A DNA stretch of 63,811 nucleotides, filler included, from Nemertoderma westbladi (lineage: Eukaryota; Animalia; Xenacoelomorpha): NCBI GenBank assembly GCA_032718475.1. It is 3 parts of 3 records of this genome, joined end to end, with 100 filler letters (N's around TTAATTAATTAA, not from the genome) between each part and the next. Parts side by side here need not be neighbours in the genome. Positions count along the whole stretch, not along the records: positions 22,990 to 54,571 come from JAUCBJ010007540.1; 2 more parts are not named here. One strand, written 5' to 3'. Within the stretch, counting starts at the first letter, position 1; each line of letters starts with the position of its first letter. Under the pieces are notes generated by a model. That model made no database searches, was not told the origin of the DNA, and worked only from the letters and a program-made list of their open reading frames with translations. The translations under genes and the position numbers were made by a program. Shown here in pieces: positions 8,131-54,571 of this stretch.

Positions 8131-11100
8131 GGGGGGCTTACACGACGGGCTGAAATACAGAAATTAAACTTATGTACATGGAATATTGGTGGAGTTCGGG
8201 ATAAATTGAATAACTGTAGAATTTTTGCCTTCATTCATGAATATGATCTTGTATGGATCCAAGAAACTAAAACTCGTGCCAAGATTAAGGTACCAGGCTA
8301 TATGGTGTATCCCAACCCATCTAAGAATCCAAATCGTGGTGGAATAATCCTTTTGGTAAAAAATTGGTTGACAGAATATATTAAAAATGTAGACAATACT
8401 TCGGTGGAAGGGGCAATATGGGTTGAACTAGATAACTTCTCAGATATGGTTTTTGGCGGGGTTTACATTCCTCCTGTAGACTCACCATACTTCGATATTG
8501 GCTTATTTGCAGAGCTACAAAGAAAACTCACCACCCTAGAAAACTTTATACTACTTGGTGATTTTAATGCCAGAGTTGGGCGACCAAACTTGATATTTAC
8601 TGCACCAAACATTGAAGGAATGGAACCACAAAATTTACGATATGAGTCGATTAATGATCCAATAATAAATAGTAATGGCAATATTTTTAGGAACTTATGT
8701 CAATGTGCAAACGCAGTTATATGTAATAATTTGAATATAGGTCCCTTACACTTGCAGGGGGGACTCACCTATCGGAAAGGGACCAATTGGGTCTCGGAGA
8801 TAGACCTATGCGCTGTTAATATAGGATTGGTCCACGCAGTTAAATCACTTTCCCTTCATAATTCAGTAGCTGGATCAGATCACGCACCTGTATCGGTATG
8901 TTTAGAGCTCAAAATACATAATAAACTGGGTAATATACAAAAACGTGTAGAACTTCTAGGGAAAACTGACTTCGAAAGTCGCACATCGTTCGATACAAAT
9001 GGAGTTAAGAAAGGAAAATGTTTCCAAAAGGTAGATATGGATAAATTTATGTCCAAAATGGAAAGAATTGACCCCCCTATAGTTACAGAGGACAATTTAA
9101 ATCAACAGGACATACAAAGAATCATAGATGAATGGTTTAATACTGTGGATGACACCGCAAGTGAATGCAGCCTACTGCTTGATGATAAGCGCATTAGAAA
9201 CCAGGATCAAAATATTTCCCGTTGGATAAAACTTCTAACCTCCCATGATAGCAAAGAAATATGGAATGCTTTAGACTGGAACGGTTGTATAGATGAAGTT
9301 AATAAATCAGTGGGTGAACAACATGATAGTCCAAGCGACGATCAGTTCAAACATCATTTCGAAACACTCTTAAATCCAGATAATGAGTCGATTGGCATGG
9401 ACGAGGTGGATACATCAGATGGACCTTTCATTCCTTTATTGGACAACCCCTTTTCGGAAAGAGAGCTAGTGGAAAGTCTCGCGGATCTGAAACCTGGGAA
9501 AGGCTATATCGGCGTTAGTCCAGGTCTTATTACGCGTCTACCAGGATCCTGGTTGTTATTTATTCTCTCTATGTTTAACGCAATATTCTTAAATACGGTT
9601 TTTCCTGCAACATGGGCAATCAGTAAACTTATCGTATGCTTCAAATCTGGTACACGATCCGAGTGCGGTAACTACCGTGGATTAAGTATTATGTATACAC
9701 TTGCTAAGTTATTTGATATACTTTTATACAATCGTTTAAGGGTATGGGTTAATATAGATAAATGCCAAGCAGGAGCGCAAAAAAATAGAGGTTGTCTGGA
9801 ACAGATAATGAGTCTACGCCTTTTGATAGACTTCGCTAAGTTTAAAAAGTGTAAATTGTTTATAATATTCATTGATTATAGCAAAGCCTATGATCGGGTA
9901 CCGAGACAAAAATTAATAGCGGAACTCAAACTACTGGGATGCGGAGCTGTAATGTTATCAATAATAAAGGCCCTGTATTCTGGGACAAAATCAATACTGA
10001 AATCAACAGTGATTTTTACAGCGATAGGAGTAAGGCAAGGTGCTCCGACTAGCGGACTGCTATTTTGCTTATATCTTAACAGACTAATTAGAATGTTAAA
10101 AGATGCAGTCCGACAAGATGGCTTTTTGGGGGGATTAGTGGCTCTCCTGTTTATGGATGATACAGTAATTCTTTCAACAACTCGAGATATAAGTGTAATT
10201 AAATTAAAACGGTTGGCAGAATTTTGTAGAATTTCAGGGATGGTAGTAAATGAAAAGAAAAGTAAATTTTTTGTAATAAATGGGAATAACTCAGATAGAT
10301 TACCGTTTCAGATGGATATTTTTACTATTCGTGCATGTGAATCTTATGTATATTTAGGGTCTATATTTTCAGCAGATGGTAGAATTTCTACAGTATTAAA
10401 GCTACATGAAATCAAATGCGAGCACATTGTAAATAAATTTACCATATTTTGTATGAGAAATTCCGAAATACCTTTTGCATTAAAGAGACGAGTTTTTGAT
10501 GCTTGTGTAGTTAGCGCTCTTTTATATGGTTCTGAGTCATGGTTAAGTAATAATTTGAGAAATATTGAGAAGCTATATAATAGACTAGTTAGGATATTAC
10601 TTTCTGTGCGTACACAAACCCCAATAGATATATGTTTAATAGAATCAGGTATCCCGCCATTGAAACACTGGATTTTAACAGCTCGTAAACGTTATGTGAA
10701 ACAACTATTATTATTATGTGACAATGAATTACCCATAGTTAAGGTTTTTAATATGTGCAATATGAATAACACCCCTGGTTATAAATTACTAATGGAATCC
10801 CTCGACTATAATAATAAGGACCCTCTAGATACTATTAGAACGAAGATAATAAATAAGCCAATGACAGCGACTAAATTTAATACGTACAGAACTACAATGA
10901 ACCCCGACTTGGAACCACACCCCATTTACTCCTGTTTAAATCCGCTGATCCCCGACCACAACAGAAAACATTTCACTAAATTGCGTCTAATGTCCCACAG
11001 ACTTAAGGTTGAAACGGGTCGTTGGAGTCGCATCCCTCCTGAGCAACGTATCTGCTGCTGTAACACAAACCTAGTACAAGACGAGCCTCACGTACTATTA

Positions 11101-11244
11101 TTTAGTCACCTGACGGATGATATACGAATAGAATACGGACTAAAATATAATAGTTTGATAGACTTGTTTAAAGAAACGTACAGTGCAGCGGTACTACTAT
11201 GTAAATTTATTGAAGCAGTATTAAAAGTTTTTTCGAATAATTAA
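8131..11244 (+). CDS. LINE ORF2: AP endonuclease, reverse transcriptase and C-terminal Cys/His motif
   Basis: Uninterrupted frame with CTWNIGG, IQET, GDFNAR, SDH, FIDYSKAYDRV, GVRQG, LFMDD, YLGS, LLYGSESW and ETGRW..RICCC..DEPH. No ATG precedes the first endonuclease motifs. Confidence 0.93.
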   Translation, partial: GGLTRRAEIQKLNLCTWNIGGVRDKLNNCRIFAFIHEYDLVWIQETKTRAKIKVPGYMVYPNPSKNPNRGGIILLVKNWLTEYIKNVDNTSVEGAIWVELDNFSDMVFGGVYIPPVDSPYFDIGLFAELQRKLTTLENFILLGDFNARVGRPNLIFTAPNIEGMEPQNLRYESINDPIINSNGNIFRNLCQCANAVICNNLNIGPLHLQGGLTYRKGTNWVSEIDLCAVNIGLVHAVKSLSLHNSVAGSDHAPVSVCLELKIHNKLGNIQKRVELLGKTDFESRTSFDTNGVKKGKCFQKVDMDKFMSKMERIDPPIVTEDNLNQQDIQRIIDEWFNTVDDTASECSLLLDDKRIRNQDQNISRWIKLLTSHDSKEIWNALDWNGCIDEVNKSVGEQHDSPSDDQFKHHFETLLNPDNESIGMDEVDTSDGPFIPLLDNPFSERELVESLADLKPGKGYIGVSPGLITRLPGSWLLFILSMFNAIFLNTVFPATWAISKLIVCFKSGTRSECGNYRGLSIMYTLAKLFDILLYNRLRVWVNIDKCQAGAQKNRGCLEQIMSLRLLIDFAKFKKCKLFIIFIDYSKAYDRVPRQKLIAELKLLGCGAVMLSIIKALYSGTKSILKSTVIFTAIGVRQGAPTSGLLFCLYLNRLIRMLKDAVRQDGFLGGLVALLFMDDTVILSTTRDISVIKLKRLAEFCRISGMVVNEKKSKFFVINGNNSDRLPFQMDIFTIRACESYVYLGSIFSADGRISTVLKLHEIKCEHIVNKFTIFCMRNSEIPFALKRRVFDACVVSALLYGSESWLSNNLRNIEKLYNRLVRILLSVRTQTPIDICLIESGIPPLKHWILTARKRYVKQLLLLCDNELPIVKVFNMCNMNNTPGYKLLMESLDYNNKDPLDTIRTKIINKPMTATKFNTYRTTMNPDLEPHPIYSCLNPLIPDHNRKHFTKLRLMSHRLKVETGRWSRIPPEQRICCCNTNLVQDEPHVLLFSHLTDDIRIEYGLKYNSLIDLFKETYSAAVLLCKFIEAVLKVFSNN

Positions 11245-12684: not shown

Positions 12685-15363
12685 TGGCTAAGGGCAGCAT
12701 TGGACAAAATAGACCAAATCTCTAACCGCATCATCCGTTGCCACTTCTCATGTTCTGGAAGATTGGCTAAGAAGTTTCCTAAGGTGGTTCTGATTGTGTG
12801 CTACTCTCCAACTAGTGTTGCCCCTGTAGAGGAGGTGGAAAATTTCTACCAGAATCTACAAGCAGCTACTGATGGAGTGGATCAGCATGCATTCTTAACA
12901 TTCCTGCGAGACTTTAATGCAAGTCTGCATCAATCACCTACATCACCCTGGGTTTATAGCAATAGTGTTAACCGAAATTCTGTCCATCTTCAGGATTTTA
13001 TCTCTGGAAATGGATTGTTTTCGGCTGGAACCCAGTTCAAGAAGCGAACTGGAAAGCTATGGACTCATAGTGGACCCAGTGGTCACAAGTCCCAGATAGA
13101 CCATATCCTGTTTCGTAGGAAATACAGGAGCTCTATACAAGACTGTAATGCATTTACACTATGACCCTTCTCCAGTGATCACCGCCTTATTGTGGCCAAG
13201 GTAAGATTTAGTCTGCGTGCTAGCAGAACAACGAAATCTGCCTTGCCGCGGCATGACTGGTCCTCTCTGTTGCAACAGCCAAGTGTGAGATCCAGCTTCA
13301 CACTACAGCTGAGCAACATATATGAGGTTCTTGCCTCTGAGGCGGCAGATCACTGTGAGGGCTATACTGCCTTCACAGAGGCAGTTAAGTTAGCAGCTGC
13401 AGAAACAGTTCCTGTATACCCTCAAAACAGGATGCAAACCCCCTGGAGTGACAACAAAATTCAGAAGTGCCAAAATGACCTCTACAAGGCGCAGAAAGAG
13501 TCCCAACTCAAACAGACTACAGCGGCCAAGAATGCAGTTAAGGCTGCATCTAGGTCCCTGAACAGGCAGTACTCTGTTAATTTACAGGAGCTAATAAACC
13601 AACAGGTTGATGCCATCAATGATGCTGGCGACAGCAGGCAATCATCCCAGGCATGGAGATCGATCAACTTGCTTGCTAGTCGAAAAAGCCAACCTACCAC
13701 CAAGGTTAAGGCTGAATCACCAGCCGATCGCCTCAATGGTTGGAAGGCCCACTTTGAAAAGCTCCTCAATAATGACAGGGTATTGCCTGATAACTTTATA
13801 GAAGTAAAAGTGTCTGAGTCTGTACTCCCAGATATTCCCATTGGTGATATCTCCATTGCAGAAATGAATGCTGCTGCAAAGAGCATTAAGACCAATCGTG
13901 CCAGTAGAGTAGATGGTGTTCCCCCTGAGGTATTTAAAATACCTGAGTGTTTAAAGCTCATCTATCCCATCATAGTAGACATGTACCGAACAACAAGAGT
14001 CTCACAAGAAATGAAAACAAATAAGTTGGTGCCAGTTCCGAAGAAGGGCAACCTAACACTCTATGGTTCTTTTCAGGGAATCTCATTGATCTCGATTGCC
14101 ACAAATCTATACAAAAGAATTCTATTAAATCGCATCAGGGATCCCATTGAGAGACTGCTCCGTGGAAATCAGAATGGGTTCCATAAAGGTTGTGGGACCA
14201 TGGAGCCCATTTTGGCACTTAGAAGGATAATTGAAGAGTTATCAAAAAAGAAAGACAGGCATCTGACTGTTATCTTTGTTGACTTCTTCAAGGCCTTTGA
14301 TTCAGTCTCTCGCTCACGTATGTTCAGCATCCTTTCATTATATGGGATTCCTGATGAAATTATTGCAGCAATCAGATCAGTATACGATGATTCGATGTTA
14401 TGGGGCATCCTCCATGGAGACACACTTGTACCATTCTTGTTCATAATTGTTGTTGACTATGTTCTACACATGTCCTTAGATCATCATGATGATGATGGGG
14501 TGATGATAACTCCACCTACTGGCTCCAAAAATCGATGAAATCCTGCCAAGTACCTAACTGATCTAGACTTTGCTGATGACTTAGGAGTACTCTCAGAATC
14601 ACTAGAGGGAGCCCAACAGTCCTCCGCTCATTAGAACATGCTGCTTCTAGTGTTGGTTTTTTTATTAACTCCAGAAAGACCACAATTTTGACAGTTAACT
14701 TTGAAAGTCCTCAGTAAGTCTCTGATCGGATGAGCATAAGCTCAAAAGATGGTATGCTTGAGCATGTGGATGACTTCTGTTACCTGGGATCATTGATCCG
14801 GAAGTCAGGTGAGGACCTTCGAATACGTAAGGGAAAGGCATGGGTAGCCTTGAATAGGCTTTCCAGGATTTGGAAGTCACCGACAATTAATCGGAAACTT
14901 AAGGTCGATTATTTAGAACAGGAGTAGTTCCAGTACTCCTCTATGGCCTAACTGCTGAGGACACAAAATCTCTGGATGGCACATTCACAAGAATGCTACG
15001 CCGGGTTCATTGTGTCAAGTACAATGCACACATCTCCAACCAGACACGATATAACATTGGAGGTGTCTCATTGGTTCCCCCAAGCTTGACACTAGAACAA
15101 AATTGCCTCCACTTTGCAGGACATTGCTTTCGCCGTGATGACCAGCCAGTGCATAATCTTGTACTTTGGCAGCCTCATGGAGTGAATAAGCAGGGTGGAC
15201 AACCCATGACTTTCTTGAGACGCATCTTAAAGGATACTGGCCTTGAAGATGCGGATGATCTAGCAAATGACATGGGTGATAGGGAGTTATGGCAGTGCAA
15301 TTTTATCAACGAACCGGAACAGCATTCTTAAGCCGATCTTATGCCGATCCTAGTAGTAGTAAT
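12685..15363 (+). mobile_element. 5'-truncated, pseudogenised RTE-clade LINE copy 2 (APE-RT)
   Basis: CYSPT, DFNA, SQIDHIL, SDH, FVDFFKAFDSV, LDFADDL, FCYLGS and FAGHCFR motifs, with stops, frameshifts and deletions. (TAG)n tail. ~16-bp TSD AGTAGGGCCTARCTAT at 12669-12684 and 15364-15379. Confidence 0.9.
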
Positions 15364-18122: not shown

Positions 18123-18223
18123 TGTATTGCTAAACCACTAGGCTGTGGGCCTTGGAAATATCGGAACCTTAGAATTATTCGGACAATACTGCAATACATC
18201 ATTTGCTTAATTCGAAAACCACA

Positions 18224-21200
18224 ATGCCGTCTACATTGACTAAACTAAAACAACAACGAAATGGCATTAGCTCACATACTAAACAACTAATAGTAGAGGG
18301 GAAACAATTCCTAAATGATGGCACCAATGCGGACTCCGAAAACATAGAAAACATCCGCGATAAACTATATTCATACAATATTAAAATCGAAGATTTTAAT
18401 CAACAAATCTTAGACAAAATATCTGATGACGATGAATATGAGGAAGAAATAGAAAATTCTATGAAATTCCAGGAGGTTATAATGGATGTCTCCATTAGTT
18501 TAACAAATCGACTTAAAAGACTCCAAGACAACCCATCGCCATCATCAACTTCCGACAGAAATACAACACCAACACCACGCCCTGTTTCAACTGCCAGTGC
18601 CCCACAACTGGTATCTACTACTAGTTTTGCTGACTTTTTGCATTGGGAACAAAGGTGGGCAGATTTCTATGAATGTCAACATTTAGCACGCCAATCTATT
18701 GAAACACAACGTGCAACAATACGGTCATGTTTCGATGACGAAATATTACGTTTTATTCAACGTGGCATTATTGCTATCCCAGAAGAGCCAACATTAAGTG
18801 ATTTCATAACGGCAGTCCGAGTATTTATTCGACAACAACGAAATATTCTTTTGGACCGGATGGCGTTTTACCAACGTTCACAAGAACAAGGTGAACCATT
18901 TAACGAATATTTAGCTTCTATACGAGAACTACATTTGGCTTCAGATTTTGCACTTGACGTCAATTGCCATCAATGTCAACTCCATAATAGTGAACTTATT
19001 CGCGATAGGATCGTAGTTGGCATCTGCGATGACGAAACTCAACATAAACTCCTTTCAACACCAGAACTTACCATTGATGATGCAATTCGCATTTGTAAAG
19101 CCGAGGAAGCTGCACATAAAACCTCTACTTCTTTATCTGGTACAACTGTAATTAACCGGTTTAAAAACATATCAGCTTATAAAAAACAACAAAGAAGTAC
19201 ATTTATAAAATCAGCCCAATTGGCAGGACCAGTTAAAACACCAGATGCTTCCAATAATTACGTGAACCAAAATTCTACTTGTTGGCATTGTGGTGGAGAA
19301 CGACATTTAAGAAGCAATTGTCCTGCAAGTGGCAAACAATGTCCTCATTGTGGCAGAATAGGTCATTTTAGTAATGTATGTAGGTCAAAATCATCGCAAA
19401 TAGACCATAATCCCCATCATAAAAACTTTCGCCTAAAAATGTCATATGCAAGTATACATACCCTTAAAGTTACGGAAGAAACAATTAAGATCAACCTCCG
19501 ACTCATTGGAAACCCGGAATTAGCGGTCCACTGGATTGGAGATTCAGGGTCTGATTACAATGCCATAAATTACAATTTATACAAGCGACTTGGGGGACAT
19601 CAAGATAACCTCTCACCAGACAATCACCCTGTTGAACTGGCAGATGGTCGGCCAATTCCTAGCCTGGGTATTGCTACTTGCGAACTTCTTTATAATGACA
19701 ATACTTATAACATCCAAGTCCATGTCTATAAAAAACTCACTGACCCACTTCTTTGTCGTCAAACACTACGTGACATTGGACTCTTGCATCCAAAATGGCC
19801 TAACCATCTGAATTTGGCAGTTTCAACAGCTTCTAGAACCATTTCAACAGATTCAACAAGAGAACAGTTCTTATTACAATATTCTGATGTCTTCGATGAT
19901 AGCTCATTACCACCAATGTCAGGCCCTTCAATGGCCATCCAATTAAAACCAGATTCAACCCCATATCATGTTAATGGGGCCAGGACCATCCCATACGCTT
20001 ATCGCGATCAGATAAAACTCCAACTCGATGATATGGAAGGGAAGGGAATCATTGAAAGAGTAACTCAACCTTGTAACTGGTGTCACCCTATTGTTATAGT
20101 TGATAAGCCACACTCCACTGAAAAAAGAATGACAGTGGATCTTACTCACCTCAACAATCAGGTAAATACAGTAATACATCCCTGTGTAACCCCAAAGGAT
20201 GCAATTTCAGGAATTCAACGAGGTTCTTCGTACTTTACCACAATCGATGCCAGACATGGATATTGGCAAGTCCCCTTAGATGAAAAATCAAGGGCATTAA
20301 CAACATTCATAACACCATGGGGTAGATATCGTTACCTTCGTGACCCACAAGGTTTTGTTTGTGCAGGGGATGAGTATAATCGTCGCACAGACGCAGCTTT
20401 TGAAGGGATACAAAATTTCAAAAAAGTTGTGGATGATGCTATTGCATATGATAATGATTATAATAAACATCTAGAACGCGTCCATCAGATCCTTCAATGT
20501 GCTCGAAATAATGGGATTACTTTAAGTGCTAAGAAATTCATATTTGCCAAACCAGAAGTTAAATTTTGTGGATACATTATTAATTCTGATGGTTGGAAAA
20601 CAGATCCAGACAAATTGAAAGCAATACAAGACTTTCCCATTCCCACAAATAAGACAGATCTACGTTCCTTCTTAGGTCTTACCCAACAATTTGCAGAATT
20701 TATAGAAGTAGCAAAGCTTACAGAACCACTTCGCTCATTACTAACCAAACAAGTAGAATTCCTATGGGATTCCAATCATCAGGATGCCTTTAACAAAACA
20801 TGCAAATCACTCACAGACACCCCGACCTTATCATTTTTTGACCTACGTCTTCCCACAAAATTGGAAACAGATGCTTCACGGACAAAGGGTCTCGGTTATG
20901 CCTTATGGCAATTGGACGGATCATCTTGGAAGCTCATACAGGTTGGAAGTCGATACCTTGCAGACGTGGAGACACGTTATGCAATGATCGAGTTAGAACT
21001 TCTTGCTGTGGTTTGGGCTACAAAAAAATGCCAAAACTTCCTTCTGGGCACAGAATTTCAATTAATAATTGATCATAAACCATTACTCCCATTCTTGAAC
21101 TCATATGCTCTTAATAACGTAGAAAATCCAAGACTTCTACGAATGTTGCTTAAATTACAACAGTTTCGATTTAAAGCAACCTGGGTCCCAGGCAAAGAAC

Positions 21201-22594
21201 ACAAGGTAGCGGATGCTCTATCCCGGGCTCCAATTCAACATTCCAATCCTGAAGATGAAGATGGTGAATGTCATGATACAGTTTCACCATCTATAAGAAC
21301 CCTACAAGCTGTTGATGACTTTGGTATAGTGGCCCTCCCAAATATTGGTATTGATACAATACATTCAATTGCCACCACCGACTCAGAATACAAAGATCTC
21401 CTGGAAGTCATAATCGCTGGTTTTCCAGATAATAAATCTATCCTTCCCATTGCCCTGCATAAGTATTGGGGAGTACGGGGTGAACTAACCACTGATAATG
21501 GGATCATTCTCAAAGGTGCAAGACTACTTATCCCCAAAGCACTACGCGGCAAAATATTAGAAGAATTGCATTCTTCACATCAAGGTCAAGAACGCACTAA
21601 ACGCAGAGCCCGTCAAGTAGTATACTGGCCCAATATTGATAATGATATTGACAACAAGGTTTCTAACTGCAGTAGCTGCCGCAAATATCAAAGTCATTTA
21701 CCTTCAGAGCCACTTATATCTGAACCAACACCATCATTACCATTTCAATCAACATCAAGCGACATATTTACCTTTGGAGGTAATGACTATCTTGCCTTTG
21801 TAGATAAGTTATCTGGTTGGCCCTGTCTTACCCGTTTTCATGGATCAGCTAACAGCACAAAGGTTATTCAATCATTGCGTAACTGGTTCCCGAATGTTGG
21901 TGTTCCCCAAAAGTTAACAACAGACGGAGGACCCCAATACAATTCAAAACGTTTCACTGATTTCTGCAAACGCTGGAACATACATCATGAGAAATCATCT
22001 CCATATCATCCAAAAGCAAATGGCCATGCAGAGGCAGCTGTGAAGTCACTAAAACGATTAGTTCAAAAAACAGCTCACCTACCAGATCCAGAAGAAGCCC
22101 TACAAAGAGGTTTGTTGGAGCTTAGAAACACCCCAAGAATCGATGGGCGTAGCCCAGCACAAATTCTATTTGGTAGACCTCTCTCATCATTTGTGGTGGC
22201 ACATCACCATTCGTTCACAGCTGATTATCAAATAGCTGCTGATAAAGCTGATGCAAACTATAAACAGTACCGTAATGACTATAAAGATTACTACAATAGA
22301 ACGGCTCATTCCCTTACACAGTTGAAGGTTGGTTGCCAAGTTGACATACAAAACCCACGTAACCATCTTTGGGACAAGCTCGGTGTTATTGTTGCTGTGG
22401 GGAAGCGTCGGGATTATATGGTTCGCCTCGGTAGTGGGCGCATATATTGGCGCAATCGTCGCTTTTTGCGTCCATACAATAACTCATCAAAAGAACAAAA
22501 CATACCAACAGAATTACAAAACCAAATCCTAATGACACCTCGTCGTAGTACCAGAAAACATTCCCCAGTGCAACGATTTGGAATAACTACATAA
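18224..22594 (+). CDS. Gag-pol polyprotein
   Basis: Two zinc knuckles (CWHCGGERHLRSNC, CPHCGRIGHFSNVC), protease DSG, RT (DARHGYWQ, VVDD), RNase H (TDAS, ELELLA, IDHKPL, ADALSR) and integrase (HHCC, TDGGPQ, NGHAE). First ATG at 18224. Confidence 0.96.
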   Translation: MPSTLTKLKQQRNGISSHTKQLIVEGKQFLNDGTNADSENIENIRDKLYSYNIKIEDFNQQILDKISDDDEYEEEIENSMKFQEVIMDVSISLTNRLKRLQDNPSPSSTSDRNTTPTPRPVSTASAPQLVSTTSFADFLHWEQRWADFYECQHLARQSIETQRATIRSCFDDEILRFIQRGIIAIPEEPTLSDFITAVRVFIRQQRNILLDRMAFYQRSQEQGEPFNEYLASIRELHLASDFALDVNCHQCQLHNSELIRDRIVVGICDDETQHKLLSTPELTIDDAIRICKAEEAAHKTSTSLSGTTVINRFKNISAYKKQQRSTFIKSAQLAGPVKTPDASNNYVNQNSTCWHCGGERHLRSNCPASGKQCPHCGRIGHFSNVCRSKSSQIDHNPHHKNFRLKMSYASIHTLKVTEETIKINLRLIGNPELAVHWIGDSGSDYNAINYNLYKRLGGHQDNLSPDNHPVELADGRPIPSLGIATCELLYNDNTYNIQVHVYKKLTDPLLCRQTLRDIGLLHPKWPNHLNLAVSTASRTISTDSTREQFLLQYSDVFDDSSLPPMSGPSMAIQLKPDSTPYHVNGARTIPYAYRDQIKLQLDDMEGKGIIERVTQPCNWCHPIVIVDKPHSTEKRMTVDLTHLNNQVNTVIHPCVTPKDAISGIQRGSSYFTTIDARHGYWQVPLDEKSRALTTFITPWGRYRYLRDPQGFVCAGDEYNRRTDAAFEGIQNFKKVVDDAIAYDNDYNKHLERVHQILQCARNNGITLSAKKFIFAKPEVKFCGYIINSDGWKTDPDKLKAIQDFPIPTNKTDLRSFLGLTQQFAEFIEVAKLTEPLRSLLTKQVEFLWDSNHQDAFNKTCKSLTDTPTLSFFDLRLPTKLETDASRTKGLGYALWQLDGSSWKLIQVGSRYLADVETRYAMIELELLAVVWATKKCQNFLLGTEFQLIIDHKPLLPFLNSYALNNVENPRLLRMLLKLQQFRFKATWVPGKEHKVADALSRAPIQHSNPEDEDGECHDTVSPSIRTLQAVDDFGIVALPNIGIDTIHSIATTDSEYKDLLEVIIAGFPDNKSILPIALHKYWGVRGELTTDNGIILKGARLLIPKALRGKILEELHSSHQGQERTKRRARQVVYWPNIDNDIDNKVSNCSSCRKYQSHLPSEPLISEPTPSLPFQSTSSDIFTFGGNDYLAFVDKLSGWPCLTRFHGSANSTKVIQSLRNWFPNVGVPQKLTTDGGPQYNSKRFTDFCKRWNIHHEKSSPYHPKANGHAEAAVKSLKRLVQKTAHLPDPEEALQRGLLELRNTPRIDGRSPAQILFGRPLSSFVVAHHHSFTADYQIAADKADANYKQYRNDYKDYYNRTAHSLTQLKVGCQVDIQNPRNHLWDKLGVIVAVGKRRDYMVRLGSGRIYWRNRRFLRPYNNSSKEQNIPTELQNQILMTPRRSTRKHSPVQRFGITT

Positions 22595-22889: not shown

Positions 22890-22989
22890 NNNNNNNNNNN
22901 NNNNNNNNNNNNNNNNNNNNNNNNNNNNNNNNNTTAATTAATTAANNNNNNNNNNNNNNNNNNNNNNNNNNNNNNNNNNNNNNNNNNNN
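22890..22989. other. Assembly gap (100-nt spacer with a central TTAATTAATTAA marker)
   Basis: N44-TTAATTAATTAA-N44, identical in form to 54572-54671. Confidence 0.95.
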
Positions 22990-23059: not shown

Positions 23060-23584
23060 TACCTCGACTCGGATTATTCGGTGGAGGTCTGCGGTAGCTA
23101 TCGGCGTGGGTTGCCTAGCAGCGGGGACGTTGACTGTCTGGTCGCTCATCCCTCATACACCTCGCTAAATAAAAGTAAATCCAACCGTTTGTTACAGAAT
23201 ATTGTAGATAGATTATCTAGTAAGGACGAAGGTTATTTTATAACAGATAAGATATCTGAAGGAGCAGTTAAGTTTATGGGAGTATCCCGTCTCCCCACTA
23301 CTAATGTAGACGATTCTACCACAAACCATTACCGTAGACTTGATATACGATTAGTTCCCATAGATGAATTCCCTTGCGCTCTGCTTTATTTTACTGGTAG
23401 CGATATGTTCAACAAATCGATGCGGTCCCACGCATTGGAACAAGGTTTCACTCTCAACGAATACTGTCTGCGTCCCTTGGGGGACACAGGGGTCCCGGGC
23501 GAGGCCCTCCCAGTCGAAAGTGAACGGGATGTATTCGATTTTATTGATTTCCCTTATAAAGAGCCCTATGAACGCTGTTTGTAA
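23060..23584 (+). CDS. POLB: DNA polymerase beta (family X), C-terminal half; 5' part not seen, may be a disrupted copy
   Basis: LDSDYSVEVCGSYRRG..SGDVD, KFMGV, RRLDIRL, LYFTGSD, MRSHALEQGFTLNEY and GEALPVESERDVF follow pol beta closely to the natural stop. Confidence 0.88.
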   Translation, partial: YLDSDYSVEVCGSYRRGLPSSGDVDCLVAHPSYTSLNKSKSNRLLQNIVDRLSSKDEGYFITDKISEGAVKFMGVSRLPTTNVDDSTTNHYRRLDIRLVPIDEFPCALLYFTGSDMFNKSMRSHALEQGFTLNEYCLRPLGDTGVPGEALPVESERDVFDFIDFPYKEPYERCL

Positions 23585-24914
23585 GAATATTGCGAGTTTA
23601 TAATCCCGGTACTGTAATATTTTGTTCAATATTATCTTCGTTGTGTTTTATTTACCTAGCTTTTTTAACACAATCTGCATTTATTACAGTACTGTGCGGG
23701 CATTTCTACAGGAAGTACTATATTTTATTATATTCTTTCTATAAGTTTAAAAAAAAGTTTCTTTTCTATATGTTTTAACATTCCATTTCAGACTGGTCAT
23801 TAATTAATGTTAATTAATTAATCTGGTATTGTTTGAAAATAAAATAGATTAATATAAGTAGGTGGTTGTACCTGCATTATTTTCTTTATCGTATTCACAA
23901 AGCGCTAAGCGGGGGAATCTACTTTATTTCCTATACCAAACATCGGTAAGGGCAGTCACATTTTGTTGACATTATTATCAATTGAAGATATATTGATAAA
24001 CTTTGTACTTCCAAGTCGTTTTCGAAACTAATATTGTTATTATTACTTTACATTCCACATATAATTGACTCTCCTATTTATGTGGCAAATATATGTTAGG
24101 TTGTTAGCCTTAGATATTTTTTTAGCTTAAGATACTAACTTCAGTGTTTTAAGTAAAATATGTGTTAACTAAATTATGTTACCTGTATTCCAAATCTAAA
24201 CTATTTATGTGTTGAATGGTCCACATGACCAATGTGAACTAATATGAACACATTCCATCTATTATATATAAAGCTGTAATTTAGTTTATTTTAGCCCAAG
24301 TGCGAGTGTAATTTACATACAGTATCTAATATCTATAATAAAATTATATTGTAGTTAATATAACTCTTGCTGCTGATAATTGTTTTTGTATATTTATTTT
24401 TATTGAACTTGTAATTCCTTTACTATTTATTTTCGTTTAAAAACCACATCATGTAATTTAATTCGTTGACGATTGTTTTCTCACGAGCGACTGATTCATC
24501 CATGTATTTATATCTTAATAATCTAACAATGTGATTCCAAATAAACTAATATTATACTTTCTGACAAACCAACTGCGTAGAAAATATATTCTTTTAGGCC
24601 TAGACCATTATTTATTCCAAACCTTTAGAAACTGAAGGTCCTAAGAAACTCAGTTTTATAAAATATAATAAACTCATTCGATCCTTATAATTATATTTAT
24701 ATATCAGATTTTTTTTATTAGGACGACGTTATTTATTATATTATGTTTAGTTATTATAAGATCAATGGTATTGTTATTATAGATAAATATTGTTATTATT
24801 ATTTATTATATATCGTTTAGTTACATTATTATATGTTTCAGTTATTTTAACTTACCTTTGTTATTTTCGATAAGAAGATATTTATTTAGATTCACCATAA
24901 ACTACTAGCTCGGC

Positions 24915-25712
24915 ATGCCGTTATCCAATTGGCTTCCAGCGTTCCCGGGTTTGTCATGGCTACCCTACGTGGTAGCCCTGTGGATGCTACTCACCTTTTT
25001 GAGTTCCTACGTAACTGCCGTGGTTTTGGGACACGTTGTGCCGGCTCTGCCTTACATAAGCGACACCGGGACTTTACCGCCGGAGAGCTGCGTATTCGGA
25101 CAAATGTTGAACATCGCAGCGCTTCTGGTGGGTTTCCTAGGTTACAGTCGATACAAACAACTGTGTCATTACCAACCGCACCCACTCGTAAACAAACTCC
25201 TACTGTTCGTGGTGGTTATAGCTGCCTTCGGGGCTAGCCTTGTAGCCAACTTCCAAGAGAAGAATGTTATTGTGGTCCACGTAATAGGGGCTTTCGCGGT
25301 GTTTGGTGGAGGAAACCTTTATTGTCTGGTACAAACATTTGTTTCGTACCGTTTGGTAGACCGTCTCGGTACCAAACGGACCTGCCATATCCGGGCTGTG
25401 TTATCTGTGTTGCAGACAGTGCTCCTGACCATTATGTCCACGTTGACTTCCGTCTCCTTTTCCCGACTCCGTGAATGGGACCCTGACGCCGACCCCATGC
25501 ACTGGGTGAACACGTGGCCGGGCTACGACATTCATATCGCCGCTGCCACCGCCGAATGGCTTCTCGGGATTGTACTGGTTTTATACTTCCTCACTTTCTC
25601 TGCCGATTTTCGATTGTTTTCTCTCGATCTAGTGATGAGGGCGGCCAACGATGAATACGTTATGGGGGTCGGGGGAGATAGCCTGAGTTCATTGGCTAAT
25701 CGCGAAGCCTAA
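24915..25712 (+). CDS. DRAM: DRAM (Frag1/DRAM/Sfk1 family) multi-pass membrane protein, single exon
   Basis: HVVPALPYISDTGTLPPESCVFGQMLN, VANFQ, VHVIGA and AEW motifs, with about six hydrophobic segments. Intact from ATG to TAA. AATAAA at 25735-25740. Confidence 0.92.
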   Translation: MPLSNWLPAFPGLSWLPYVVALWMLLTFLSSYVTAVVLGHVVPALPYISDTGTLPPESCVFGQMLNIAALLVGFLGYSRYKQLCHYQPHPLVNKLLLFVVVIAAFGASLVANFQEKNVIVVHVIGAFAVFGGGNLYCLVQTFVSYRLVDRLGTKRTCHIRAVLSVLQTVLLTIMSTLTSVSFSRLREWDPDADPMHWVNTWPGYDIHIAAATAEWLLGIVLVLYFLTFSADFRLFSLDLVMRAANDEYVMGVGGDSLSSLANREA

Positions 25713-52933: not shown

Positions 52934-53171
52934 GAGTAAATATCGTACATAAGTTGCCTAATTGGTGCTAAGATTTAGTGATAGGATTTTATTATTCATC
53001 TAAGTAGCTTGTTGATATTCCTTTTAGTGGTATCAGGAACTATAATTGAAGTTTCCCCAAAGAAAAAACCATATTTAATTTTGGAGGAAACTATCATAGT
53101 TTATAATGGTGTAATATTATGGGTTTGTTCAGAAGTGGAAAAAATGGGAGCGCGTCACCGGGGGTTGAACC

Positions 53172-53217
53172 AGCGCTATACGCACGTTTCGGCCTAACAG
53201 GCCTCATCAGTAGCGCT
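53172..53217 (-). ncRNA. Type I hammerhead ribozyme, copy 1
   Basis: The minus strand reads AGCGCUA CUGAUGA GGCCU-GUU-AGGCC GAAAC GUGC GUA/UAGCGCU: full core, 7-bp stem I, 5-bp stem II and short stem III. Predicted cleavage after GUA, between 53179 and 53178. Confidence 0.93.
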
Positions 53218-53511
53218 AACCAGCTCAGCCACTAGCCCCTGACACTCGCAGTCCCACCTAATCCACTTCTATTGAACGGGCAGTCTTAAGTTGCAAATAT
53301 TCTATCTCTAACAGCGGACCTAACGGCCTCAAGTATGCTAGAGTGAAACAGGAGGGAAGTACAAATAAATAAATATTCAGCTCGGTATTGCTGCCAGGTG
53401 ATATTAATTAAATAAATTGGAGATGAGCTGTTGCAACTGTAATTAAAGGTGTAATATTATGGGTTTGTTCAGAAGTGGAAAAAATGGGAGCGCGTCACCG
53501 GGGGTTGAACC

Positions 53512-53557
53512 AGCGCTATACGCACGTTTCGGCCTAACAGGCCTCATCAGTAGCGCT
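53512..53557 (-). ncRNA. Type I hammerhead ribozyme, copy 2
   Basis: Same sequence as copy 1, offset +340. Confidence 0.93.
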
Positions 53558-53851
53558 AACCAGCTCAGCCACTAGCCCCTGACACTCGCAGTCCCACCTA
53601 ATCCACTTCTATTGAACGGGCAGTCTTAAGTTGCAAATATTCTATCTCTAACAGCGGACCTAACGGCCTCAAGTATGCTAGAGTGAAACAGGAGGGAAGT
53701 ACAAATAAATAAATATTCAGCTCGGTATTGCTGCCAGGTGATATTAATTAAATAAATTGGAGATGAGCTGTTGCAACTGTAATTAAAGGTGTAATATTAT
53801 GGGTTTGTTCAGAAGTGGAAAAAATGGGAGCGCGTCACCGGGGGTTGAACC

Positions 53852-53897
53852 AGCGCTATACGCACGTTTCGGCCTAACAGGCCTCATCAGTAGCGCT
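53852..53897 (-). ncRNA. Type I hammerhead ribozyme, copy 3
   Basis: Same sequence as copy 1, offset +680. Confidence 0.93.
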
Positions 53898-54191
53898 AAC
53901 CAGCTCAGCCACTAGCCCCTGACACTCGCAGTCCCACCTAATCCACTTCTATTGAACGGGCAGTCTTAAGTTGCAAATATTCTATCTCTAACAGCGGACC
54001 TAACGGCCTCAAGTATGCTAGAGTGAAACAGGAGGGAAGTACAAATAAATAAATATTCAGCTCGGTATTGCTGCCAGGTGATATTAATTAAATAAATTGG
54101 AGATGAGCTGTTGCAACTGTAATTAAAGGTGTAATATTATGGGTTTGTTCAGAAGTGGAAAAAATGGGAGCGCGTCACCGGGGGTTGAACC

Positions 54192-54237
54192 AGCGCTATA
54201 CGCACGTTTCGGCCTAACAGGCCTCATCAGTAGCGCT
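54192..54237 (-). ncRNA. Type I hammerhead ribozyme, copy 4
   Basis: Same sequence as copy 1, offset +1020. Confidence 0.93.
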
Positions 54238-54531
54238 AACCAGCTCAGCCACTAGCCCCTGACACTCGCAGTCCCACCTAATCCACTTCTATTGAACGGG
54301 CAGTCTTAAGTTGCAAATATTCTATCTCTAACAGCGGACCTAACGGCCTCAAGTATGCTAGAGTGAAACAGGAGGGAAGTACAAATAAATAAATATTCAG
54401 CTCGGTATTGCTGCCAGGTGATATTAATTAAATAAATTGGAGATGAGCTGTTGCAACTGTAATTAAAGGTGTAATATTATGGGTTTGTTCAGAAGTGGAA
54501 AAAATGGGAGCGCGTCACCGGGGGTTGAACC

Positions 54532-54571
54532 AGCGCTATACGCACGTTTCGGCCTAACAGGCCTCATCAGT
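54532..54571 (-). ncRNA. Type I hammerhead ribozyme, copy 5 (5' strand of stem I lost in the gap)
   Basis: The core is present and the sequence runs into Ns at 54572. Confidence 0.8.

Follow-up and report, generated by a model that had tools for sequence, protein, structure and literature searches.

A tandem 340-bp hammerhead array of Nemertoderma westbladi as a probable retrozyme, with candidate Pol III boxes on either side of its predicted cut

Animal non-LTR retrozymes are an already described and widespread class of repeats. Those of coral, mussel and axolotl, together with newt satellite 2, are non-coding head-to-tail units of 150-450 bp with a GC content below 50%. Every unit contains a single type I hammerhead of the canonical form, whose helix III is short and palindromic, and the units occur at high copy, as multimers in satellite-rich DNA (comparison based on the available parts of PMC7229834, PMC7761336 and bioRxiv 10.64898/2026.07.22.740005). 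The 340-bp tandem unit of Nemertoderma westbladi considered here shares all of these traits. It differs from them in two respects. Expression and circles have been demonstrated for the described retrozymes, whereas for the 340-bp unit they are predictions; and retrozymes are said, in the accessible part of PMC7761336, to be without a promoter, whereas the 340-bp unit contains A-box, B-box and T6 motifs.

The schistosome Sm-alpha and Sj-alpha elements combine a type I hammerhead (RF00163) with a tRNA-type Pol III promoter (PMC6765202 and PMC2770079, both in extract). According to the former source, the Sm-alpha hammerhead comes after the promoter, and the cut RNA retains the promoter intact at its 3' end. 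Because the Sm-alpha promoter lies ahead of the ribozyme and survives the cut, while in the 340-bp unit the predicted cut falls between the boxes and T6 comes after the B box, the latter is not of the Sm-alpha type. Engineered tRNA-embedded ribozymes have a hammerhead lodged between the A and B boxes of a tRNA gene; these are laboratory constructs that cut another RNA, whereas the 340-bp unit would be natural and self-cutting. The TRIMs Cassandra, Helenus and Ajax are non-autonomous and carry a small-RNA-gene promoter in their repeat, as the 340-bp unit may do too. As presented in the available part of PMC10886601, they are LTR elements with PBS and PPT and without a ribozyme, whereas the 340-bp unit holds a hammerhead and has a purely head-to-tail layout. 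Lastly, the pLTRs of Penelope elements, the likely origin of the copying enzyme, hold type I hammerheads able to act as dimers (PMC4209133, in part). They flank an RT/GIY-YIG ORF, and those of animals mostly carry minimal hammerheads, according to the same extract; no such ORF is among the 11 scanned in the window, and the hammerheads of the array are not minimal.

The window, i.e. the whole stretch of 63,811 nucleotides that was analysed, is probably made of three unrelated contigs. A first-pass annotation had placed at least 4.3 identical, non-coding units at 53108..54571, and closer comparison bears this out. TRF, run on the whole window, reports a 340-bp tandem repeat of 4.3 copies at 53104-54571; units 1-4, counted from 53108, agree at 340/340 bases, and the partial fifth unit (104 bases) shows no difference from them. 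The unit has a GC content of 45% and a longest stop-free frame of 56 codons, and the layout of the array is purely head-to-tail, without an internal region. Recent insertion had been read from the identity of the units; judging from the sequence, assembly collapse or satellite concerted evolution would also give it. The array had further been described as running into a gap. N's do follow it, but they belong to a spacer, repeated identically at 22890-22989, and an artificial join is likely, as the central 12-mer, TTAATTAATTAA, carries stop codons in all six frames. In two other long contigs the match to the unit ends at 53109, just as in this array, a hint from the alignments that the 3' end near this position is fixed across the family.

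On its other side lie satellites of 20, 18, 52 and 53 bp, a block that runs back to back over ~26-27 kb, from 27034 to 52933, and ends with the array. In Xenopus, too, retrozyme multimers are concentrated at the centres and ends of chromosomes (bioRxiv 10.64898/2026.07.22.740005, in part). The ORF pattern of the 18-bp satellite shows a higher-order repeat of ~3,051 bp. Long uninterrupted frames for Pol beta (C-terminal half, 23060-23584) and Frag1/DRAM (24909-25712) adjoin the block; the Pol beta product is at most 61% identical to the best 120 of its 851 matches, which come from molluscs, crustaceans, annelids and vertebrates. Elsewhere in the window there are a long LINE-type endonuclease/RT frame (8131-11244), a broken LINE-type RT (13165-14538) and a long LTR-type pol frame (18173-22594).

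Table 1. Features of the 340-bp array and its surroundings; positions are those of the window, and unit features are given for unit 1
Feature	Position	Strand	Remarks
Tandem array, 4.3 identical 340-bp units	53108..54571	-	right end lost at assembly spacer
Spacer N44-TTAATTAATTAA-N44, likely artificial contig join	54572..54671	.	identical copy at 22890-22989
3' end of array against unique DNA, possibly a fixed family end	53104..53109	-	flank depth 23-27 in X2
Long imperfect stem with hammerhead at tip	53127..53277	-	z -4.0, 0/200 shuffles
T6, candidate Pol III terminator	53139..53144	-	16 nt 3' of B box
Candidate Pol III B box GGTTCAACCCC	53161..53171	-	part also pairs as helix I extension
Candidate Pol III A box TGGCTGAGCTGG	53220..53231	-	part also pairs as helix I extension
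Canonical type I hammerhead, unit 1	53173..53216	-	Rfam RF00163, 23.4 bits; shuffle test
Helix I, 6 Watson-Crick pairs	53216-53211 with 53178-53173	-	
Catalytic core CUGAUGA	53204..53210	-	
Helix II, 4 bp, loop UGUUA; common allele UGAUA	53191..53203	-	resembles anticodon arm of tRNA-Asn(GUU)
GAAA	53190-53187	-	
Helix III, 2 bp and loop GUGC alone; 8-bp duplex between two copies	53180..53187	-	
GUA triplet	53181-53179	-	
Predicted cleavage site after GUA	53178..53179	-	hammerhead consensus
Predicted 340-nt monomer from cut to cut; 5' end carries B box, A box lies near 3' end	53179..53518	-	

A complete type I hammerhead on the minus strand had been ascribed to every unit. Four complete copies are present, repeating at +340, +680 and +1020, but the fifth is truncated and lacks the 5' strand of helix I. 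A canonical hammerhead in at least two consecutive units, the mark of a retrozyme, is found here in four. None of 20,000 dinucleotide shuffles passes the hammerhead structure filter. Comparison with Rfam Hammerhead_1 (RF00163), the check that the first-pass annotation had proposed, gave a full-length match in a 116-base search (model positions 1-45 of 45, E 6.6e-4), but the score of 23.4 bits lies below the gathering score of 34 bits, and at gathering scores Rfam has no match in the whole window. Hammerhead_3 matches weakly (E 0.14, Rfam search of 901 bases). A relaxed scan of the window found four hammerheads, all inside the array and none outside it. Canonical animal hammerheads have 6 bp in helix I, 4 bp in helix II and 1-2 bp with a palindromic loop in helix III (PMC4209133, in part), proportions that the array hammerhead shares. 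The hammerhead consensus predicts a cut between 53179 and 53178, the same site that had been named from the first inspection. Folding of the resulting 340-nt monomer gives a z of -1.36, with 11/100 shuffles equally stable.

Sequence runs extend this picture beyond the array. Nine runs were listed and five contain the unit or part of it; as none is recorded as RNA, they have no bearing on expression. Unit contigs number 2,275 in X2, 1,173 in X4 and 98 in X5, which are DNA runs from three studies, and the earlier claim of a family in this genome is upheld by such repetition. In X2 the summed depth of the unit is ~9e4-2.9e5 against 23-27 for the flank; this is not a copy number, yet a depth so far above the flank indicates a very large family. 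Unit fragments are also embedded in long single-copy contigs, which points to dispersed copies. Of the 25 joints found, 15 are listed. Three of those listed switch strand, and six break at 53180-53183, in X2 and X4 alike (chance ~4e-7 for a 6-base window). These six breaks lie 2-5 bases 5' of the predicted cut, which is not a plain run-off end. Reverse transcriptase stalling, at either a ligation junction or the duplex of helix III, could account for them, as could a palindrome-associated DNA hotspot, and the polymorphism at 53183 can draw alignment ends to the same bases. Judged by sequence, dispersed, truncated and inverted copies are typical of retroposition.

Some further observations concern single copies or runs. 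A 57-base piece of the unit lies in other DNA of the window, at 1132-1187, and is 96% identical to 53404-53460, across the start point of the array; the sequence that directly follows it recurs in an X2 loose end, next to a fragment of the unit. At 53208, beside the catalytic core, a 4-base insertion accounts for 1,108/3,352 of the summed depth in X5, possibly a divergent subfamily. X1, a run whose RNA status is guessed and which bears another organism label, contains one 371-base contig (depth 5.5) that goes once round the unit with one inserted base. It was dropped as evidence of rings since a tandem DNA array gives the same and low-level carry-over is plausible.

We conclude that the 340-bp unit is very probably a retrozyme. 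The likeness to metazoan non-LTR retrozymes, proposed in the first-pass annotation, fits every feature visible in the sequence. It is probable that we are dealing with a new family of the known class, with a twist in the promoter layout, and this family may already be listed in the supplements of PMC7229834 or bioRxiv 10.64898/2026.07.22.740005. Read plainly, it would be one further member of a widespread class.

A copying role had earlier been assigned to a borrowed, probably Penelope, RT. This fits the available part of bioRxiv 10.64898/2026.07.22.740005 and the 3/15 listed joints in opposite orientation, but the 11 window ORFs scanned with Pfam include no Penelope-type ORF; the domains found are LINE-type endonuclease/RT, LTR-type pol, Pol beta and Frag1/DRAM. 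A closer tie to Penelope would make the unit itself the pLTR of a coding Penelope-like element, or a direct derivative, and the array a pLTR multimer. Among the 57 Xenopus retrozyme families in the same source, 24 match known transposons (21/22 Penelope-like), the strand-switching joints and the possibly fixed 3' end would suit such an origin, and the right flank lost at the spacer could hide an ORF. However, the hammerhead is not of the minimal pLTR type, which has a helix II of 7-8 bp with a bulged base and lacks helix III (PMC4209133, in part): it is canonical, with a helix II of 4 bp and no bulge, and helix III is present. Moreover, at least four units stand in a row without an ORF, the rest of the window is free of further hammerheads, and a Penelope ORF is missing from the 11 scanned. 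We regard this origin as improbable.

It appears from folding that a retrozyme of this kind would cut as a dimer. Helix III pairs with its own copy over 8 bp (duplex -8.8 kcal/mol), and the majority allele at 53183 makes it a perfect 8-nt palindrome from which both G-U pairs are gone. This allele accounts for 172,808/206,120 of the summed depth in X2 (84%), 76,109/78,545 in X4 (97%) and 2,979/3,550 in X5 (84%). With two units, a forced double hammerhead reaches -167.2 kcal/mol against -167.3 without constraint. A forced single hammerhead costs 2.6 kcal/mol over the minimum; in a single unit, a competing hairpin leaves helix I a pair probability of 0.12-0.22. Since the double fold costs 0.1 and the single one 2.6 kcal/mol, and since the hairpin competes with helix I, dimer cleavage is favoured over single-hammerhead cleavage in these models. 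In a 441-nt read-through RNA (see below) the forced double hammerhead, at -135.7 against -137.5 kcal/mol, is 1.8 above the minimum, and in a short RNA of 100-110 nt the hammerhead fold is 4.3 kcal/mol above the minimum of that RNA.

In invertebrates, a hammerhead whose helix III has 2 bp is able to cut by itself (PMC7229834, in part), and in Xenopus one of nine predicted retrozyme dimers was cut in vitro (bioRxiv 10.64898/2026.07.22.740005, in part). C11.1 reads U in 14-34% of depth, so that many copies may be weak. On such models cleavage of the array RNA is not assured. The z of the long stem with the hammerhead at its tip (Table 1) applies to a region picked after the fold was seen. Covariation in this stem is not significant, 10/15 paired-site variants keeping the pairing against 54% expected (p 0.23).

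The first inspection missed three motifs that surround the hammerhead, an A box, a B box and T6, which bear on how multimers arise. The hammerhead sits between the two boxes, which are spaced by 48 nt, and the predicted cut splits the pair. The box consensus patterns that were applied agree with the box motifs in the available part of PMC10886601. Yeast tRNA genes have A-to-B box spacings of 31-93 nt (PMC4937561, in part), a range that includes the 48 nt of the unit, and T6 is the sole run of at least four T on either strand. The combination of A box, B box and T4 occurs in 9/20,000 dinucleotide shuffles, in 14/200,000 shuffles that keep the stem pairs and core, and in 3, 19 and 10 per 100,000 with helix III and loops 1 and 2 held constant in addition; these frequencies overstate the significance, perhaps tenfold, because the motif set was chosen after looking. 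Among the 40 variant rows considered, out of 42, no variant is listed in the B box or T6, and the sole one listed in the A box, at 53224, keeps a purine. Such conservation is not distinctive on the sequence side, since variants are listed at just 12/187 positions elsewhere in the unit. Near 53290-53297 there is also a motif resembling the octamer of snRNA promoters; it was rejected, as a common allele at 53296 breaks it.

The same bases may have another explanation. Bases of one box pair with those of the other (UGARC with GUUCA), and the variant at 53224 converts a G-U to an A-U pair, so that RNA structure alone could hold them. The unit would then be a promoter-less non-LTR retrozyme, in keeping with what is said of those described (PMC7761336, in part): the boxes would be the arms of an extended helix I plus loop 1, T6 would be incidental and multimers would come from satellite read-through. 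The long stem does cover the whole box region, and it requires sequence upstream of the likely Pol III start; a tRNA is called neither by ARAGORN nor by Rfam. However, nulls that keep pairing and loops still give the A box, B box and T4 only 3-19 times per 100,000, and T6 is harder than the boxes to explain by structure. It is the one T-run of the unit, it lies at the distance of a tRNA terminator, just 2/6 of its U residues are in Watson-Crick pairs within the stem, and it is kept in the loose-end consensus of another subfamily while its neighbours change. We consider the promoter-less alternative unlikely, though it deserves real weight. By a narrow preference, the sequence argues for a Pol III promoter in the unit, either working or ancestral.

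The resemblance to a tRNA extends beyond the boxes. A pattern made from three pieces of the box segment fetched 17 viral loci, of which 17/17 are tRNA-Asn(GUU). The best alignment to nine distinct tRNA-Asn scores 41.5, a value reached by 2/20,000 nulls, or by 24/8,000 when the loops are fixed. It must be noted that the tRNA-Asn set was itself fetched with a pattern made from the 340-bp unit and that, because this pattern was picked with tRNA-Asn in mind, ~50 isotypes must be allowed for, which gives a p of ~0.005 to 0.15. With two insertions, the alignment spans the D arm, the anticodon arm (equivalent to helix II plus GAAA) and the T arm. At the GUU-like loop, GAU makes up 29% of depth in X2, 50% in X4 and 80% in X5. 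Similarity to 11 non-Asn tRNAs is at the level of chance (724/3,000 nulls). ARAGORN predicts no tRNA gene, and Rfam gives no tRNA match at E values up to 10. These alignments leave a tRNA-like frame around the hammerhead fairly well supported and a tRNA-Asn origin of the segment only suggested. It is a tentative and rather doubtful proposal that the hammerhead originated within the anticodon region of a tRNA-Asn gene, or entered it by recombination, giving rise to a Pol III retroelement whose ribozyme halves its own promoter.

We are evenly divided over a fuller reading, in which the unit is a non-autonomous retrozyme with its own tRNA-derived Pol III promoter that passes through rings to multimers. 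Pol III would start 10-20 nt 5' of the A box and mostly end at T6, yielding an RNA of 100-110 nt with one hammerhead. A fraction would read on to the next T6 and give an RNA of ~440 nt with two hammerheads; read-through from outside the array would likewise produce a two-hammerhead RNA. Terminator read-through is common in yeast tRNA genes (PMC4937561, in part), and transcription of Cassandra runs from the promoter of one LTR to the terminator of the next (PMC10886601, in part). Paired via their palindromic helix III, the two hammerheads would cut after GUA and set free a single 340-nt monomer. Its ends would lie between the two promoter boxes, so that it would open with the B box and close with the A box. 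By analogy with described retrozymes (PMC7229834, in part), the host tRNA ligase RtcB would close the ring and thereby put the hammerhead back between A box and B box. Multimers would be copied from the ring by a borrowed reverse transcriptase, probably Penelope-like, with a possible fixed starting point near 53108; arrays may afterwards grow longer and more uniform through DNA recombination within the satellite block.

T6 should stop most Pol III transcripts, at ~100 nt, and a simpler life for the short RNA can be imagined. The unit might be a tRNA-derived Pol III mini-gene amplified as a satellite, whose 100-110-nt RNA cuts in trans, with no circle and with growth of the array by recombination. 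The order of A box, B box and T6 is that of a tRNA gene, the array lies at the end of ~26-27 kb of satellites, and Sm-alpha cuts in cis or in trans (PMC6765202, in part). Nevertheless, conservation across the family extends to all 340 bp, the dispersed, truncated and inverted copies are of the sort typical of retroposition, the short RNA must pay the 4.3 kcal/mol given above to form its hammerhead, and the long stem calls for upstream sequence. This mini-gene is quite unlikely in our estimation.

To return to the promoter-bearing retrozyme, the promoter, if real, bears on which polymerase makes animal retrozyme RNA and on rings as the true template of new copies. Since cutting would split the promoter, copies with an intact A box, hammerhead and B box could come only from ligated or uncut RNA. 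If this is true, a linear monomer copied to DNA would be promoter-dead, active copies would be founded by ligated rings or uncut multimers only, and circularisation would be under direct selection. Read-through of T6 would meter the output of rings, one unit each time. The unit would then serve as a Pol III cassette for RNA rings that is both natural and self-contained, and its ribozyme may be built in part from tRNA sequence.

A natural hammerhead between A and B boxes was not encountered, by title and opening of the abstract, in the literature searched, a body outside which most subscription papers, Repbase and Dfam fall. Scans for relatives yielded viral sets of 5, 1 and 2 loci and 120 metagenome loci from 52/64 parts; no relative with the hammerhead-between-boxes layout was found in these collections, which hold little animal DNA. 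The first five viral loci contain no proper hammerhead. In the other 123 loci, nine hammerhead-like rows in seven loci pass the helix filter, all with a long stable helix III, and no A box lies beside any of the nine. Two of the metagenome loci, L043 and L091, probably bacterial or phage, each carry a pair of type I hammerhead-like motifs on the same strand, separated by ~535 bases.
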